From positions 1-46,946 of the forward strand of contig JAYVNR010000098.1 in NCBI GenBank assembly GCA_043758305.1: a stretch of 46,946 bases of DNA. The letters are read 5' to 3'. Under the pieces are notes generated by a model. That model was not told where the DNA came from. It ran no database searches and was given only the letters and a program-made list of their open reading frames with translations. Origin of the DNA: Pedobacter sp. (GTDB taxonomy: Bacteria; Bacteroidota; Bacteroidia; Sphingobacteriales; Sphingobacteriaceae). Positions 4,137-15,882 of the stretch are shown one piece after another; position 1 is the stretch's first letter; the number at the start of each line of letters is the position of its first letter. The position numbers and the translations under genes were made by a program.

Positions 4137-5852
4137 TTAAAACAAAAAATACCGCTGCGCCATTGGCAATACAGAAACTGGCTGGCAGGTAATGTGCACG
4201 CCATCAACTTTTACTTCGTAGTTTTCCGGATTTACATCAATTTGCGGAGTGGCATCATTGTGTATCAAATCTTTCTTAGAAATGTTGCGACAGTTATTAA
4301 CGGGCAAAACAATTTTTTCCAGTCCGTAACTATGTACTTTATTATTCTCTAATGAAATTTTCGACACAAAGGTGATGCAGGTTTTGAACAATGCTTTGCC
4401 ATACGCACCGAACATGTGCCTGTACATTACGGGCTGAGGAGTGGGGATGGATGCGTTTGGGTCGCCCATTTTACTGGCTATTATCATTCCACCTTTGATG
4501 ATCATTTCGGGCTTAACCCCAAAAAAAGCCGGTTTCCATAAAACTATATCTGCAAATTTCCCCTCCTCGAGCGATCCCACATATTCTGAAATGCCATGTG
4601 AAATAGCAGGGTTGATGGTATATTTAGAAACGTAGCGTTTTACCCGAAAATTATCATTGTCTTTTCCTTCGTCCTCGGACAAAAAACCTCGTTGTTTCTT
4701 CATTTTATCGGCAGTTTGCCAGGTACGGATAATCACTTCTGCCACCCTGCCCATGGCTTGAGAATCTGAGCTCATCATGCTGAACACACCCATATCATGC
4801 AAAATATCTTCTGCTGCAATTGTTTCGGGGCGAATTCGAGAATCGGCGAAAGCCACATCCTCAGGCACTGATTTATCCAGATGGTGGCAAACCATCAGCA
4901 TATCCAAATGCTCATCAATGGTGTTAACGGTGTAAGGGCGGGTTGGATTAGTAGATGAGGGCAGAATATTGGGATACATTGCGGCTTTTATAATATCTGG
5001 CGCATGGCCCCCGCCCGCTCCTTCTGTGTGGAAGGTATGGATAACCCTGCCGTTAATAGCGTTTATTGTATCTTCCAGGAAGCCTGATTCATTCAAAGTA
5101 TCAGTATGGATGGCAACCTGAATATCGTATTTATCAGCTACCTTTAATGATGCATCTATCACGGCAGGCGTTGAGCCCCAGTCTTCGTGTATTTTTAAAC
5201 CTAGCGCACCGGCTTCTATCTGTTCTTCGAGAGGTGCAGTAGCAGCGCAATTGCCTTTGCCAAAAAAACCCAGGTTCATGGGAAATGCATCGGCAGACTG
5301 AAGCATTTTTTCGATGTTCCATGCGCCGGGGGTTACTGTAGTGGCGCTTGTACCATCGGCGGGACCGGTGCCTCCTCCGATCATGGTTGTAATGCCGCTG
5401 AAAAGGGCATGGTCAATTTGCTGCGGGCAAATAAAATGGATGTGCGTATCAATGCCTCCGGCTGTGGCAATGAGCCCAGCTCCCCCGTGCACTTCTGTAG
5501 ATGCGCCAATGATGAGATTTTCATCTACGCCATCCATTGTATCGGGGTTCCCGGCTTTTCCTATGCCCACAATTTTGCCGTCTTTAATACCAATATCTGC
5601 TTTTACAATTCCCCAATGGTCTATGATCATCACACTGGTTATCACAAAATCGAGCACATTTTCACTGCGGGTGCGGGTAGCGGATTGAGCCATGCCATCG
5701 CGTATGGTTTTGCCGCCACCGAATTTTGCTTCATCGCCATAAACTGTATGATCCTTTTCAATTTCAATAATAAGGTCCGTATCGGCAAGGCGAACCCTAT
5801 CGCCAACCGTTGGGCCGTACATATTAGCGTATTTTATGCGATTGATATTCAT
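4137..5852 (-). CDS. ureC: Urease alpha (catalytic) subunit
   Basis: 571 aa. [19 protein letters not shown] (carbamylated Lys), [28 protein letters not shown] and SSDSQAMGR motifs are all present. Confidence 0.97.
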
Positions 5853-10076: not shown

Positions 10077-11033
10077 CTAAAAAATCCCCTCGGCAATTTT
10101 ACGGGTTGGCTCGGGGTTGCTCATAGTATAAAAATGCAATACAGGTGCGCCCAATTCAATCAATTCTTTGCACTGGTGGATCATCCACTCAATGCCCAGC
10201 TCTTTAACCTCTTTCTCTGATTTGCATTTCTGTATGCCATCGCTCAGTGCCTCGGGCATATCTAGATGAAATATTTTTGGCAGGCTTATGAGCTGCTTTG
10301 ATGATGTAATAGGCTTTAACCCAGGTATAATGGGCACATTAATGCCATTTTCGCGGCAAAGTTTTACAAAATCGCTGTACTTGCTGTTGTCGAAAAACAT
10401 TTGCGTAACTATAAACTCCGCACCCATCTCAACTTTCTGCTTCAAGAATTTAAAATCGGTAGCCATGTTTGGTGCTTCGAAATGCTTTTCAGGATAGCCA
10501 GCAACGCCGATACAGAAATTGGTTTTAAAGGATGTGTCGTGGTCTTCGTGCAAATAAACGCCATTGTTCATGTTCACAACCTGCTCTAAAAGATCGGTAG
10601 CGTAGGCATGTCCGCCCGGAGTAGGGATAAACGAAGCATCGGCATGGCGGGCATCGCCGCGAAGCACCAAAACGTTATCAATTCCCAAAAACTGAAGATC
10701 AATAAGCGCATTTTCCGTTTCTTCTTTGGTAAAGCCGCCGCAAATTAAATGCGGTACCGCATCTACTTTATATCTATTCATGATAGCAGCGCAAATGGCC
10801 ACAGTTCCCGGGCGCTTGCGGTAGGAAACTTTCTCTAGTAAACCGCTGTCGTGCTGTTTGTAGATATAGTCCTCACGGTGATATGTTACATCAATAAATG
10901 GCGGATTGAATTCCATTAAAGGATCTATCGCATCGTATATTCCCTCAATGCTCTTCCCTTTTACAGGTGGCAGCAGTTCGAAGGAGAAAAGTGTTTTGCC
11001 TTGTGCGGCGGTTATGTGTTCGGTAATTTTCAT
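10077..11033 (-). CDS. metF: Methylenetetrahydrofolate reductase
   Basis: FSFELLPPVKG, DVTYH, VPHLIC, NVLVLRGD and FIVTQMFFD motifs. Confidence 0.92.
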   Translation of the reverse strand: MKITEHITAAQGKTLFSFELLPPVKGKSIEGIYDAIDPLMEFNPPFIDVTYHREDYIYKQHDSGLLEKVSYRKRPGTVAICAAIMNRYKVDAVPHLICGGFTKEETENALIDLQFLGIDNVLVLRGDARHADASFIPTPGGHAYATDLLEQVVNMNNGVYLHEDHDTSFKTNFCIGVAGYPEKHFEAPNMATDFKFLKQKVEMGAEFIVTQMFFDNSKYSDFVKLCRENGINVPIIPGLKPITSSKQLISLPKIFHLDMPEALSDGIQKCKSEKEVKELGIEWMIHQCKELIELGAPVLHFYTMSNPEPTRKIAEGIF

Positions 11034-11036
11034 AGT

Positions 11037-11069
11037 ATTAGTTGTGGGTGTTCGGTTGTATGTTGTGGG
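11037..11069. repeat. Left arm of the imperfect inverted repeat flanking the four-helix-bundle gene
   Basis: attagttgtgggtgttcggttgtatgttgtggg matches the reverse complement of 11588-11620 at 26 of 33 positions without gaps; the first 14 nt match 13/14. Confidence 0.65.
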
Positions 11070-11080
11070 TGGTTGCTAGC

Positions 11081-11455
11081 TTATGATTGTTGGTTACTAT
11101 AATATCTAATGAACCCATTAAGCAGTTTTCTTACAACTATCAGGCCCTCTAATATAGGCTGTAAATCAGCTACGGAAATGTAATTTAAATCAGAGGACAA
11201 GTATAGTTGAGTTTCTAACTCGTACAATGAACCTCGTGCAATATAGAAAAACTGGGAACTGTCCTTTTTATGATTTCTTCCACATCCTTCAGCAATATTG
11301 GAGGGAATAGACACTGAGCATCGTCTCATTTGACTTACTAGCCCATATTGCTCCTCCTTTGGAAAAGATTGAGTTAGTGAATAGATTATCAACACAAGTT
11401 TACGTGCTTCCTTCCAAACATCTAATTCGATATGGCTTTTATAATTGTCAGGCAT
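11081..11455 (-). CDS. Four-helix-bundle protein (23S rRNA intervening-sequence protein family)
   Basis: 124 aa. L.VW..A..L...IY..T..FPKEE.YGL.SQMRR..VSIPSNIAEG..R....D...F..IA.GS..ELETQL is the hallmark of the TIGR02436 / 23S_rRNA_IVP family. Confidence 0.85.
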   Translation of the reverse strand: MPDNYKSHIELDVWKEARKLVLIIYSLTQSFPKEEQYGLVSQMRRCSVSIPSNIAEGCGRNHKKDSSQFFYIARGSLYELETQLYLSSDLNYISVADLQPILEGLIVVRKLLNGFIRYYSNQQS

Positions 11456-11587
11456 GGAAATCTCGATAAACTTTATTTACTGCACAACCGGCACACATCA
11501 CAACCCAACTCTAGCGGCATTCAATTATATGTTTTCCCAGCCCCACAAAACGCAACTCACTTCCCGCAAATTAAACGCTTTTCAGGT

Positions 11588-11620
11588 CCCACAACCCAAA
11601 ACACACCACCCACAATTAAT
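11588..11620. repeat. Right arm of the imperfect inverted repeat; it overlaps the metH stop codon (11616-11618)
   Basis: cccacaacccaaaacacaccacccacaattaat, the reverse-complement partner of 11037-11069. Confidence 0.65.
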
Positions 11621-14600
11621 ATCCCAAATTCGGGCTCAGCCATCGCTCTGCTTCCTCAAGCGACATGTTTTTACGTTTTGCGTAATCCTCAACCTGATCT
11701 TTGCCAATTTTTCCCAAGCCAAAATAACGCGATTGTGGGTGGGCAAAGTAGAAGCCGCTTACAGCTGCTGTTGGGAACATGGCAAAATTCTCTGTGAGCT
11801 GCAAACCAATAGTTTTCTCAGCATCGAGCAAATTGAACAACGTACGTTTTTCGGTGTGATCCGGGCAAGCTGGATAGCCTGGCGCCGGCCGAATACCGTT
11901 ATATTTTTCTTTGATCAGCTCTTCGTTGCTCAAGGTTTCGTCCTGTGCATAGCCCCAATAATCTTTTCGCACTAATTCGTGCAAGTGCTCAGCGAAAGCT
12001 TCAGCTAATCTGTCTGCTATCGCTTTGATCATGATACTGTTGTAATCGTCATGGTTTTTCTCAAACTCAGCTACTACCTCATCAATGCCAATACCTGCGG
12101 TAACCGCAAACCCGCCAAAATAATCTTGTATTCCGGTCTCTTTCTGAGCAACAAAATCGGCTAGGGCATAATACGGCTCGTCTTTAGCTTTTTCTGCCTG
12201 TTGGCGAAGAGTATGGATAATGGTGGGTTGTGAGTTGGGGGTTGCTGGTTGTGAGCCCGGACTTTCAGACTTTCCGTCTTCCGGTCTATTTTCAACTTGC
12301 AAAACAATATCGTCGCCTACTGCGTTGGCCGGCCAGAATCCGAACACGGCATTAGCTTTAAGCAATTTCTCATCTATCACACGTTTCAACAATTCCTGTG
12401 CGTCGTCAAAAAGCTTTTTAGCTTCATCTCCAACAAACTTATCTTCAAATATGCGGGGATAGCTTCCGCGAAGTTCCCAGGTATGAAAAAATGGAGTCCA
12501 ATCGATGTATGGCACCAAATCTTCCAATGGATAATCTGTAAGCACCTTTGTACCAGTAAACTTGGGCGCAGGAGGAATTGAACCGTTTAAATTTATCTGA
12601 AATTTATCTCTCCTTGCTTCGTGGATTGACTTAAAACGCTTATCGTTTTGTTTGCTTAAATGCACTTCCCGGGCTTTGTCGTACTCCTCACGGATGCTTT
12701 TCATGAAACCATCCTTATTTTCATCATTCAATAAGTTGGTGCATACGCCCACGCTTCGCGAAGCATCTAAAACATGCACCGAAGCGCCCGAATAATTTGG
12801 AGCAACTTTTACCGCGGCATGTATGCGAGAGGTTGTTGCGCCGCCAATCAACAAGGGAATTTTCAAACCCTCACGCTCCATTTCTTTGGCAAAATGCACC
12901 ATCTCGTCTAGCGAAGGCGTAATCAAACCGCTTAGCCCAATAATATCTACATTGTGCTTTTTAGCTTCTTCAAGGATTTTCTGAGCTGGCACCATTACGC
13001 CAAGGTCTATTACCTCGAAGTTGTTGCAGGCTAGGACTACGCCTACTATATTCTTGCCGATATCGTGCACATCTCCTTTAACTGTAGCCATTAAAACCTT
13101 CCCGGCGTTCTTCCGACCGGAGCCATCTCCCTCTCCAGAATCAATAACACGCTGCTTTTCCAATTCTATGAACGGCAGCAAGTAAGCCACGGCTTTTTTC
13201 ATAACTCTTGCCGATTTTACTACTTGTGGCAGAAACATTTTCCCCGCACCGAACAAGTCGCCAACAATGTTCATCCCATCCATCAAAGGCCCTTCAATTA
13301 CCTCAAGAGGCTTTGAATATTGTTGCCGAGCTTCCTCGACATCTTCATCCAGATATTCGATAATGCCTTTGACCAATGCGTGCGAAAGGCGTTGCTGAAC
13401 CGGGGTTTTGCGCCATTCTTCATCACGTACTATTTCTTTACCTTTTGATTTTACTGTTTCGGCAAAATCAACCAGCCGTTCTGTAGCATCGTCTCTACGG
13501 TTCAACAAGACATCCTCAACACGTTCCAGCAAATCTTTTGGTATCTGGTCATATACTTCAAGCATCCCGGCATTCACAATGCCCATATCCAATCCCGCTT
13601 GAATGGCGTGATATAAAAATGCTGAGTGCATTGCCTCGCGTACCGTGTTATTTCCCCGGAAGGAGAACGAAATATTGCTCACGCCACCACTCACTTTTGC
13701 TAATGGAAGGTTTTGCTTTATCCAGCGGGTAGCTTCTATAAAATCTACTGCGTAATTATTATGCTCTTCTAAACCGGTAGCTACGGTCAAAATATTCGGA
13801 TCGAAAATAATGTCCTGTGCCGGGAAGTTTACTTCATTCACCAGTATGTCGTAAGAGCGTTTGCAAATCTCTATCCGGCGCTCGTATGAATCTGCCTGCC
13901 CTTGCTCATCAAACGCCATTACCACAACTGCAGCACCGTATTGCTTTATTTTGCGGGCGTAGTTCTTAAAATTTTCTTCGCCTTCTTTCAGCGATATGGA
14001 GTTTACAACACTTTTGCCTTGCAAGCATTTCAAGCCTGTTTCTATCACGCTCCATTTAGATGAATCTACCATAATAGGCAGTTTTGCGATATCTGGCTCG
14101 GATGCTATCAGGTTCAGGAATTTGGTCATTGCTGCTTCCGAATCCAGCATCCCCTCATCCATATTCACATCTATAATCTGCGCTCCGCCCTCTACCTGCT
14201 GACGGGCAACGGTAAGAGCTTCTTCAAACAGGCCACCTAAAATGAGCTTGGAGAACTTAGGAGAACCGGTAACGTTGGTACGCTCGCCAATATTTACAAA
14301 ATTGGTTTCAGGCGTTAAAGTAACGGGTTCTAAACCACTCAAACGTAGATATGGCTCGGGTGTAGGCGGTACACGAGGCGGATATTTCGCTGCCTTTTCT
14401 GCGATGCACCTGATGTGATCGGGCGTTGTGCCGCAGCAACCACCCACAATGTTCACAAATCCATGCGATATAAAATCTTCAACATAATGAGCCGTTTCGT
14501 GCGGCACTTCATCATATGCACCAAACTCGTTGGGCAATCCAGCATTTGGATATGCAGAAATAGAGCAGCCTGCTTTTTCTGAAAGCTCTTCAATGTGCGG

Positions 14601-15392
14601 GCGCATCTCTCTGGCACCAAGCGCACAATTCAAACCAATGCTTAAAATATTGGCGTGGTTTACGGAGTTTAAGAAAGCTTCTACGGTTTGCCCGGAAAGG
14701 GTACGGCCGCTGGCATCGGTAATGGTGCCGGAAATCATGATTTCGAGCCTCCTCTCCCTAAATCCCTCTCCGGTAGAGAGGGACTTCGCCTGCTCGTTTA
14801 GCTCGTCCTCATATTTCTTGGTAGCAAAAAGAGCCGCTTTGGTTATAAGCGTATCCGTAATGGTTTCAAATAAAAGCACATCAGCTCCGCCATCAACCAA
14901 GCCTCTTATCTGCTCGTAATATGCATCAACCAGCTCATCAAAAGTAACGGCACGGTAGCCTGGGTCATTCACATCGGGCGACATGGATGCCATTTTGGTT
15001 GTTGGGCCTAAAGCGCCGGCAACAAAACGTGGCTTGTCAGGATTTTTGGCTGTATATTCTGCGGCAATTTCTTTAGCGATGCGGGCACCTTCAAAACTCA
15101 TCTCGTACGACCATTCTTCCATTTGGTAATCAGCCATGGAAATGCGCTGCGTACTGAATGTATTGGTCTCTATAATGTCTGCGCCAGCATCTAAATATTC
15201 GGCATGGATGGCTTTGATAACATCCGGGCGGGTAATGTTCAACAAATCGTTATTTCCCTTTACATCGCAGGGATGGTTTTTAAAACGCTCGCCCCGAAAA
15301 TCTTCTTCAGTAAGCTGATAGCGTTGTATCATGGTGCCCATTGCACCGTCTATAACTAAAATGCGTTTTTGTAGTTCTTCTCTAATGCTCAT
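11616..15392 (-). CDS. metH: Cobalamin-dependent methionine synthase
   Basis: Full four-module architecture: Hcy-binding (GGCCGTTP), pterin-binding, B12-binding ([10 protein letters not shown]) and AdoMet activation ([15 protein letters not shown]). Start taken at MSIREEL (15392); the 16-codon extension to 15440 is unconserved. Confidence 0.95.
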
Positions 15393-15521
15393 ATTTTTTA
15401 GATAGGAGAAATTAGATGTGAGATATGAGATATGGCGCAACAGAGGCGTCTCAAATCTATTGTCTCAAATCTATTCTCTCGATGTGCTTTTCGGAAAGGC
15501 CGGTTGGAAACTGACTTTCAA

Positions 15522-15619
15522 CTTATCTGTTCCGCCAACGGGCGGATAGAATGTAGCACCTTGTAAGCACAGGTTGCTAAGACTTCGCAGGGTCTAATCC
15601 CTCTGTCTTTCTGAATAAG
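15522..15619 (-). promoter_or_regulatory. SAM-I (S-box) riboswitch aptamer in the metH leader
   Basis: The minus strand reads CUUAUUCAGAAAGACAGAGGGAUUAGACCCUGCGAAGUCUUAGCAACCUGUGCUUACAAGGUGCUACAUUCUAUCCGCCCGUUGGCGGAACAGAUAAG. P1 is CUUAU/AUAAG. The GAGGGA, GACCC, AGCAACC and GGUGCUA.AUUC cores and a CCGCC/GGCGG P4 hairpin are all present. Confidence 0.85.
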
Positions 15620-15882
15620 CACTGCAAAGATGGGGAATAAAGTGGAGAAGTGCAAGAGGGCTAAGATCTGCAGATGGGTTGGATTTGTAGATGCGCAGAT
15701 GAGATAAGGTTTGTTCACGCAACGAAACAATGGCGCTGCGTCTCTGCCCCGTTGCGCCTTTGCGTGAATTGCCACTCCATGAGCCCGTTAAGATGGATGT
15801 GCCGATGGGCAGTATGTGCAAATACATGGCAAAAAAAAGGTCGGTTGCCTACCGAAGATATATTATGCCTGTGCAATCACTG

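Follow-up and report, generated by a model that had tools for sequence, protein, structure and literature searches.

A PF05635 four-helix-bundle gene between inverted heptamer arrays fills the metH–metF junction of a Pedobacter genome

In a 46,946-nucleotide stretch of Pedobacter sp. DNA (contig JAYVNR010000098.1 of assembly GCA_043758305.1; the whole of this stretch is hereafter the window), the methionine genes metH and metF lie in tandem on the minus strand, and the entire gap between them is occupied by a 584-bp insert made of a small gene for a four-helix-bundle (4HB) protein and two inverted arms built from 7-nt units. An earlier note, written from the sequence alone, had described this insert as a cassette resembling the intervening sequences (IVSs) found in 23S rRNA. 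In this work, we combined profile searches, RNA folding and comparisons across relatives and other phyla, and found the insert to be a single copy of a gene-plus-repeat module that is widespread. Its protein belongs to PF05635/TIGR02436, a very large family of unknown function, and bacterial heptamer repeats near gene ends have lacked an explanation since the 1990s; if it is true that the two belong together, both gain a testable function, that of a protein reading 7-nt arrays at cistron boundaries.

Table 1 Features of the methionine locus in the window, and neighbouring array pairs on other contigs of the same genome.
Feature	Position	Strand	Remarks
SAM-I (S-adenosylmethionine) riboswitch aptamer	15520..15621	(-)	head of the inferred metH-[4HB]-metF transcription unit; Rfam scan
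Gene-less inverted heptamer-array hairpin	15400..15480	(-)	GAGATNT family; 13-nt loop; between SAM riboswitch and metH start codon
metH, cobalamin-dependent methionine synthase	11616..15392	(-)	five Pfam domains
Solo heptamer array inside metH	12223..12255	(-)	CACAACC type on gene strand; same family as cassette arms
5' arm (gene strand)	11588..11621	(-)	four degenerate heptamers TTGTGGG TGGTGTG TTTTGGG TTGTGGG; G/T-rich, C-poor
Leader, 132 nt, from 5' arm to 4HB start codon	11456..11587	(-)	extra decayed GT-rich heptamer-like stretches
4HB protein gene, 124 aa	11081..11455	(-)	PF05635 23S_rRNA_IVP, TIGR02436
3' arm (gene strand)	11036..11069	(-)	four heptamers CCCACAA CATACAA CCGAACA CCCACAA; G-poor
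metF, methylenetetrahydrofolate reductase	10077..11033	(-)	
Adjacent G-first array pairs	C266:5628-5700, C188:187-259, C290:7366-7479		different non-complementary families; no stem possible

The cassette at the metH–metF junction

A gap of 582 nt separates metH from metF. The two arms, 34 nt each and 518 nt apart, are complementary at 27 of 34 positions (79%) and were the top pair in a repeat search. The right arm, 133-166 nt upstream of the 4HB start codon ATG, includes the metH stop codon TAA (11618-11616), and the 3' arm stops 2-3 nt short of the metF ATG. The earlier note had taken the unit to be the whole metH–metF gap and had matched its arms at 26 of 33 positions, and at 13 of 14 at the outer ends; both statements agree with what we find. 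We then scored the flanks of the gene by local alignment of the upstream 180 nt to the downstream 180 nt in reverse complement, with 2000 random genome positions of the same geometry as the control. The cassette scores 33, a value reached by only 1 of the 2000 random positions (mean 17.4, s.d. 2.6), and its inverted repeat is real rather than a product of chance. Comparing flanks of 150-190 nt with shuffled sequences in RNAduplex gave no discrimination (z -1.5 to -4.6), and this version of the test is uninformative because long flanks inflate the energies.

The encoded protein matches PF05635 with an E value of 4.8e-40 and 136.5 bits (cut-off 33.8) and TIGR02436, 'four helix bundle protein', with an E value of 2.5e-38 and 130.6 bits (cut-off 24), which bears out its earlier assignment to the 23S rRNA IVS-protein family. 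PF05635 and bAvd-like are its only Pfam matches, and no nuclease, recombinase or transposase domain was found in it by Pfam and profile searches. Its nearest solved structure, by a sequence match with an E value of 2.3e-25, is that of XCC0516 (2GSC), which is a pentamer (PMC4990558).

No terminator-like site was found within the metH–metF gap, and no sigma-70-type promoter stands out in the leader upstream of the 4HB gene. We infer that the cassette is co-transcribed with the SAM-riboswitch-controlled operon, since the genes share a strand, the riboswitch lies upstream of metH, the gap has no terminator-like site and the gaps of relatives with an empty junction measure 6-30 nt. When the 621-nt sense RNA of the junction is folded with RNAfold, both arms are predicted to come together in one long-range stem with a mean pair probability of 0.78, in line with the long stem that had been envisaged for a metH–metF co-transcript.

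Four paralogs with four arm families

The genome assembly (2.33 Mb in 349 contigs, 75% complete) holds four PF05635 genes, each lying between co-directional housekeeping genes: metH and metF (C98), a 3-hydroxyacyl-CoA dehydrogenase-like gene and thiolase (C320), sdhA and sdhB (C193), and an L25-like gene and pth (C240). Among these neighbours sdhB is confirmed by Pfam; by eye alone, we take its partner to be sdhA, the upstream gene on C320 to be a 3-hydroxyacyl-CoA dehydrogenase of the fadB type, and that on C240 presumably to encode ribosomal protein L25. The SIPSNIAEG and ELxTQ motifs are invariant in all four proteins, and all four genes are bracketed by inverted repeats, with flank scores of 33-42 that are each reached by at most 1 of the 2000 controls. 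The minimum-free-energy fold of every one of the four sense junction RNAs contains a long-range stem between the arms (pair probability 0.67-0.82, RNAfold).

The sequence of the arms, however, differs from paralog to paralog, with an AGTACAG/AGTAGTT family, a GAGATNT family, a long purine-rich array and, at metH–metF, the TTGTGGG family, whose 5' arm carries three GGG tracts and one GG, compared to the four consecutive tracts of at least 3 G expected of G-quadruplex-forming heptamer repeats; the arms of the other three have no G-tracts. Thus, the earlier idea that paralogs would be flanked by similar GTTGTGGG-rich inverted repeats holds for the flanking but not for the similarity, as each has a heptamer family of its own. 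Genome-wide, GTTGTGGG occurs 73 times against 41 expected, and this weak enrichment led us to reject the possibility that the arms are copies of one abundant octamer.

Recurrence of gene and arms across phyla

To place the cassette in a wider context, we sampled 80 loci from one-genome-per-species contigs of many phyla and a further 60 loci from family relatives. A flank score of at least 32 is reached in 39 of 79 relatives compared to 3 of 237 cross-locus controls, and 78 of 139 sampled loci across phyla score at least 30 and are referred to as armed. A period of 7 fits best in 35 of 43 armed loci, and in 56 of 71 loci the genes on either side both run in the same direction as the 4HB gene. 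In two loci from Pseudomonadota (L123 and L097), a 4HB cassette with heptamer arms of its own is placed between the S-adenosylhomocysteine hydrolase gene ahcY and a distant metF; we considered these as a link between the clade studied here and metF and rejected it, as they belong to a separate Pseudomonadota clade in the tree, and we treat the position of those genes just upstream of metF as independent of this clade and possibly coincidental.

The arm motif follows the lineage of the protein. In a Mantel test of protein identity against shared arm 5-mers, none of 2000 permutations reached the observed value, and pairs of proteins that are at least 60% identical share 44% of their arm 5-mers compared to roughly 5% in pairs below 50% identity. 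Five motif classes map onto protein groups, and GTTG, GAGAT, AGTA and TAAGT arms each go with a group of their own. The GTTG core is kept between orders, whereas the order of the units, their number and their period (7 or 8) are not.

The metH–metF junction in relatives

We compared the junction across 61 relatives; in most members of the family, metH lies next to metF. An empty site, which the earlier note had suggested looking for, is present in the same-genus genome G001, where the junction measures 27 nt and the genome has no 4HB gene of this type (best match 44% identity). This empty junction contains a possible remnant of a 3' arm (…CGACCAAACCCACA ATG) that is too short to judge. Roughly 19 other family genomes also have a junction without the cassette, with gaps of 6-154 nt. 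Five family genomes have an occupied junction, and their 4HB genes come from three unrelated lineages, each with its own arms: lineage (a) in G022, 69% identical to the 4HB protein of the window and with GTTGTGG/GTTGTAA arms; lineage (b) in G014, G024 and G027, 55-62% identical to one another and 36-41% to that of the window, with AGTA-type arms; and lineage (c) in G026 (L023), a divergent protein of 145 aa at about 30% identity, with hexamer arms of the GCAGTA/GCACT type. All five carry the motif of the resident gene, and the empty junctions have no paired arrays. In G026 the 4HB open reading frame (ORF) reads on through the 3' arm into a low-complexity tail, NTPATATASATSN, and the metH–metF gap of L012 (G009) and L014 (G025) holds a different small palindromic element, rich at each end in hairpins of the CCCCCTGAAGGGGG type.

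Lineage (a) has further orthologs between metH and metF, namely in Daejeonella, three Pedobacter species, a Sphingobacterium and Flavobacterium cellulosilyticum, with arms of the GT-only 'GTTG…' kind; the 4HB genes of this type at metH–metF in those genera are at least 54% identical. Orthologous cassettes at this junction carry related GTTG-type arms. In F. cellulosilyticum (L076, ~880-1426), a full hairpin of G-arm and C-arm stands on each side of the 4HB gene in place of one gene-spanning stem.

In nine Flavobacteriales genomes (L062, L065-L068, L070, L073-L075) metH is split, and a gene of the same 4HB clade sits exactly between the ORF of the homocysteine domain and that of the pterin domain, with the C-rich arm forming part of the open frame where the downstream ORF begins (…NNQQPTTNNQ…). 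The Flavobacterium metH–metF gene is sister to a split-metH copy (support 100/99), and sister copies at two junctions of the met operon point to relocation inside the operon. Across the protein tree, genomic context changes 18 times, compared to 31.6 times for shuffled labels, and 0 of 200 shuffles gave so low a number. Comparison thus shows the module to be long-lived in the met operons of Bacteroidota, repeatedly lost and replaced, and occasionally relocated; it probably entered the metH–metF gap as a unit. No target-site duplication was seen when the filled junction was compared with the empty one of G001.

What constrains the arms

If pairing of the sense RNA were the constraint on the arms, mismatches compatible with G·U pairs should dominate, and they do not. 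The arm mismatches of the 78 armed loci comprise 70 sense G·U-compatible transitions, 91 antisense-compatible ones and 196 transversions, with no excess of G·U-compatible changes on the sense strand. When the order of units in one arm is permuted and the best register is chosen anew, the mean number of in-register matches is 750.5, compared to 768 observed, so marginal an excess that the complementarity of the arms is almost wholly due to their being two arrays of the same motif. Unit numbers in the arm pairs of orthologs are often unequal (for example, 10 versus 4-5, or 5 versus 10), and a locus-specific unit variant is always common to both arms of a locus. The mismatch and register counts, together with the non-complementary array pairs (Table 1) and the two local hairpins of the Flavobacterium ortholog, argue that sense-RNA base pairing is neither the only nor even the main constraint on the arms.

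The arms also have a polarity, with the G-rich version of the motif 5' (G>C) in 74 of the 78 armed loci and reading 5' to 3' toward the gene on both sides. As an inverted repeat of this kind is G-first on both strands, the direction of the 4HB gene does not come into it: each array is polar relative to the centre of the cassette or to the flanking gene ends.

These results bear on an alternative in which the arms do nothing but form a double-stranded RNA stem, from which ribonuclease III (RNase III) would excise the 4HB messenger RNA and separate the metH and metF messages, the heptamers being incidental. The stem is predicted at all four loci of this genome, where the RNase III gene (rnc) is also encoded, the arms reach the stop and start codons of the neighbouring genes, and the unit variants shared by the two arms of a locus are as pairing would have them. 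A homologous stem is moreover known to be cut: the helix-45 IVS of Coxiella burnetii has a 28-bp stem and tandem GACAGAT heptamers before the S23p start, and RNase III cleaves it at the first repeat (Warrier et al. 2016, PMC4990558). However, a pure stem would need neither a motif that is kept across orders and tracks the protein clade nor a G-first polarity, and the mismatch and register counts, the very unequal unit numbers, the existence of adjacent array pairs that are non-complementary (Table 1) and the Flavobacterium ortholog with two local hairpins and no gene-spanning stem all speak against it. We consider that the stem is unlikely to be the whole explanation.

Heptamer arrays across the genome

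The arms are not the only heptamer arrays of this genome. With a threshold of at least 2.9 copies, Tandem Repeats Finder reports 91 arrays of period 7 compared to 23, 14 and 23 for periods 6, 8 and 9. The clear arrays belong for the most part to five families (GAGATNT, GTTGTGG, AGTAKTT, TAAGTNN and purine-rich), and four of these also make up the arms of the paralogs. Several arrays form gene-less inverted pairs with loops of 12-70 nt. Neighbouring arrays on opposite strands are G-first in 15 of 15 pairs, including those of different, non-complementary motifs. Between co-directional ORFs, 13 arrays are G-rich in the sense strand and lie beside the upstream stop, 17 are C-rich in the sense strand and lie beside the downstream start, and 2 are exceptions.

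Among the 61 relatives, the number of 4HB copies ranges from 0 to 10 and correlates with the count of four-unit GAGA- or GTTG-periodic arrays (Spearman 0.60, p 4e-7), whereas the correlation of genome size with arrays is 0.36. Arrays are present in 32 of the 47 genomes with a 4HB gene compared to 2 of the 14 without (Fisher p 5e-4), and one relative with a single GAGAT-armed 4HB gene, similar to the C193 paralog, carries 58 GAGA arrays. The TAAGTNN family numbers about 12 arrays in the Pedobacter genome, some of them hairpin pairs (C173, C188, C217, C242, C170, C178, C223 and others), and the TAAGT-armed 4HB genes of G022, G033 and G007 form their own protein group.

Intergenic heptamer repeats have been described before, with GGGNATC in Xanthomonas and Nostoc (Rehm et al. 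2015, PMC4692102) and TAACTGA in Beggiatoaceae (MacGregor 2015, PMC4679880). Like the arrays described here, such repeats, which include the cyanobacterial STRR, have 7-nt units in variable number with about four preferred, lie between co-directional ORFs, and are G-rich after stops and C-rich before starts. For the published cases, however, no associated gene family is named, and G-quadruplexes or regulators yet to be identified were proposed, whereas here inverted pairs of arrays enclose a 4HB gene and the motif varies with the lineage of that gene. The arrays could be ordinary gene-end elements, acting as translation, stability or G-quadruplex signals and having no connection with the 4HB gene between them. 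The 30 of 32 skewed arrays that fit the stop-and-start rule, the same rule in Xanthomonas and Nostoc (PMC4692102), the TAACTGA repeats just upstream of Beggiatoaceae start codons (PMC4679880) and the complete hairpin on each side of the Flavobacterium gene are what such elements would give. They would not, however, explain why the arm motif co-varies with the 4HB clade, why the five occupied metH–metF junctions carry the motif of the resident gene and the empty ones no paired arrays, or why array abundance tracks 4HB copy number across genomes; a G-quadruplex is in any case impossible for the GAGAT, AGTA and TAAGT motifs. We regard a lack of any connection between gene and arrays as highly improbable.

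A further alternative is a mobile element that acts at the level of DNA. Its arms would serve as terminal inverted repeats, or would fold into a cruciform or a single-strand hairpin, and the 4HB protein or a host enzyme would recognize them for excision and insertion; the gene-less arrays would be its non-autonomous derivatives. The model would be the REP/REPIN-RAYT systems, which also have a single-copy gene between inverted short repeats, the same repeats dispersed between genes, often as hairpin-forming pairs, and one repeat family per lineage; in this genome, four paralogs likewise go with four array families that each also occur elsewhere without a gene. The presence or absence of the cassette among relatives, one junction colonized by three lineages, relocation within the met operon among close relatives, the scatter of gene-less inverted arrays of the same families, the correlation of array abundance with 4HB copy number and the fixed inward polarity, reminiscent of terminal repeats, would all suit an element of this type. 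RAYT proteins, however, are nucleases of the Y1 transposase type (IS200/IS605-like), whereas the 4HB protein has no catalytic domain, be it nuclease or recombinase, and REP sequences are palindromic units of 20-40 nt rather than tandem heptamer arrays. The junction bears no target-site duplication, the same lineage at the same junction across orders makes movement rare at best, and the paralogs of one genome have no common arms and hence no recent burst. We think it quite unlikely that movement of DNA is what the arms are for. More conventional elements, namely an insertion sequence or miniature inverted-repeat transposable element, a transposon or an integron, were rejected, as there is no transposase and no target-site duplication relative to G001.

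Proposed mechanism and relation to known systems

We favour the reading in which the arms are lineage-specific recognition arrays that can also pair, and put its probability at roughly 50%; what speaks for it is that the lineage of the protein predicts the type of heptamer and that 4HB copy number tracks the abundance of arrays. The module would consist of a PF05635 gene and, on its two sides, inverted arrays of a heptamer specific to the lineage; it would insert as a unit in the metH–metF gap and then be transcribed with the operon. The simplest option is that the arms are bound by the encoded protein, which putatively forms a ring. Because both arms carry the same motif, they may also pair in the operon transcript, where the predicted imperfect stem of ~30 bp would put the metH stop beside the metF start and could be cut by RNase III, by analogy with rRNA IVSs. 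With the metH stop at the beginning of the 5' arm and the metF start at the end of the 3' arm, ribosomes that finish metH would open the outer stem and might free the G-poor, CA-rich leader of metF. Translational coupling would then stay intact despite the insert, a putative arrangement that is compatible with the data.

Several observations weigh against recognition of the arrays by the protein. The correlation of protein and motif could be plain co-inheritance of the cassette and is no proof of recognition. In Pedobacter nanyangensis (L072, 995-1447), the metH–metF 4HB gene is broken by a premature stop, with the remaining frame recognizable downstream, and yet the arms around this pseudogene are intact, the 3' arm being made of five perfect 8-nt units (CAAACAAC). 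The 75%-complete assembly has no TAAGT-type 4HB gene for its TAAGT arrays, and two relatives carry arrays without any 4HB gene. The 4HB proteins are only mildly basic (median pI 8.4), and there is no recombinase, target duplication or observed movement that would explain how the cassette entered the gap.

The rRNA IVSs of Coxiella and Leptospira share with the cassette an S23p/PF05635 ORF, an enclosing inverted-repeat stem of ~28 bp and dependence on a host transcript, and the tandem heptamers that the Coxiella IVS has between stem and start codon are a further likeness. The host differs, being here the junction of a protein-coding operon, with arms that abut the stop of metH and the start of metF, and in an IVS a helix of the rRNA; no rRNA was matched by Rfam in the window, so the insert does not lie in a 23S helix (9, 25 or 45) as an IVS would. 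In addition, the ORF of the cassette is intact and conserved, whereas that of Coxiella is decaying and probably untranslated, and excision by RNase III, known for IVSs, is for the cassette an analogy. The earlier label of an IVS-like cassette is thus apt for the architecture, an S23p-family ORF between heptamer-built arms, and for its nature as a unit that is gained and lost, as the empty G001 junction indicates; a stem in the sense RNA as the sole constraint is disfavoured by our sequence tests.

The Avd proteins of diversity-generating retroelements have a homologous fold: they form pentameric barrels of four-helix bundles, to which nucleic acid and a partner enzyme bind. The match of the 4HB protein to Avd is far below the cut-off (NF033474, 25 bits versus 80), its neighbours are metH and metF, and there is neither a reverse transcriptase nor a template or variable repeat nearby, on which grounds we rejected a diversity-generating retroelement.

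A broader proposal is that PF05635 4HB proteins in general are sequence-specific partners of tandem heptamer arrays, with one 7-nt motif per lineage, and that gene and arrays make up a self-maintaining system that takes up residence between the cistrons of housekeeping operons and in rRNA helices. We advance it tentatively and would not be surprised to see it fail. A full-text literature search found no link of PF05635 to heptamer arrays outside rRNA, and the literature may still hold one. If the proposal is true, rRNA intervening sequences would be one habitat of a broader, operon-dwelling module, and the partnership would explain both the orphan 'IVS protein' family and the excess of heptamers near gene ends. 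In itself, the locus is a further instance of the module; together with its relatives, it offers a compact, testable case that ties the orphan family to bacterial heptamer repeats.

Further features of the operon and the window

The metH–metF operon has repeats of its own beyond the cassette. The leader hairpin between the riboswitch and metH is of the GAGATNT family, which is also that of the sdhA–sdhB cassette, and no classical terminator was seen near this hairpin and the SAM-I riboswitch. The true start of metH is likely the ATG at 15392 rather than the TTG at 15440. Within metH, the solo array consists of the units CACAACC AGCAACC CCCAACT CACAACC, is translated in frame and encodes part of a 15-aa loop insert in the activation domain of MetH; this insert is absent in G001 and most relatives, and G009 and G014 have a similar one. 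An operon under control of a SAM riboswitch thus tolerates a 584-bp insert, a repeat hairpin in its leader and an array translated inside metH, which makes the locus a compact system for the effects of such arrays on transcription, processing and translational coupling. Elsewhere in the window, the urease region contains a full-length Rfam match to RF02514, '5' ureB small RNA', on the plus strand at 5408-5706 (90.8 bits).

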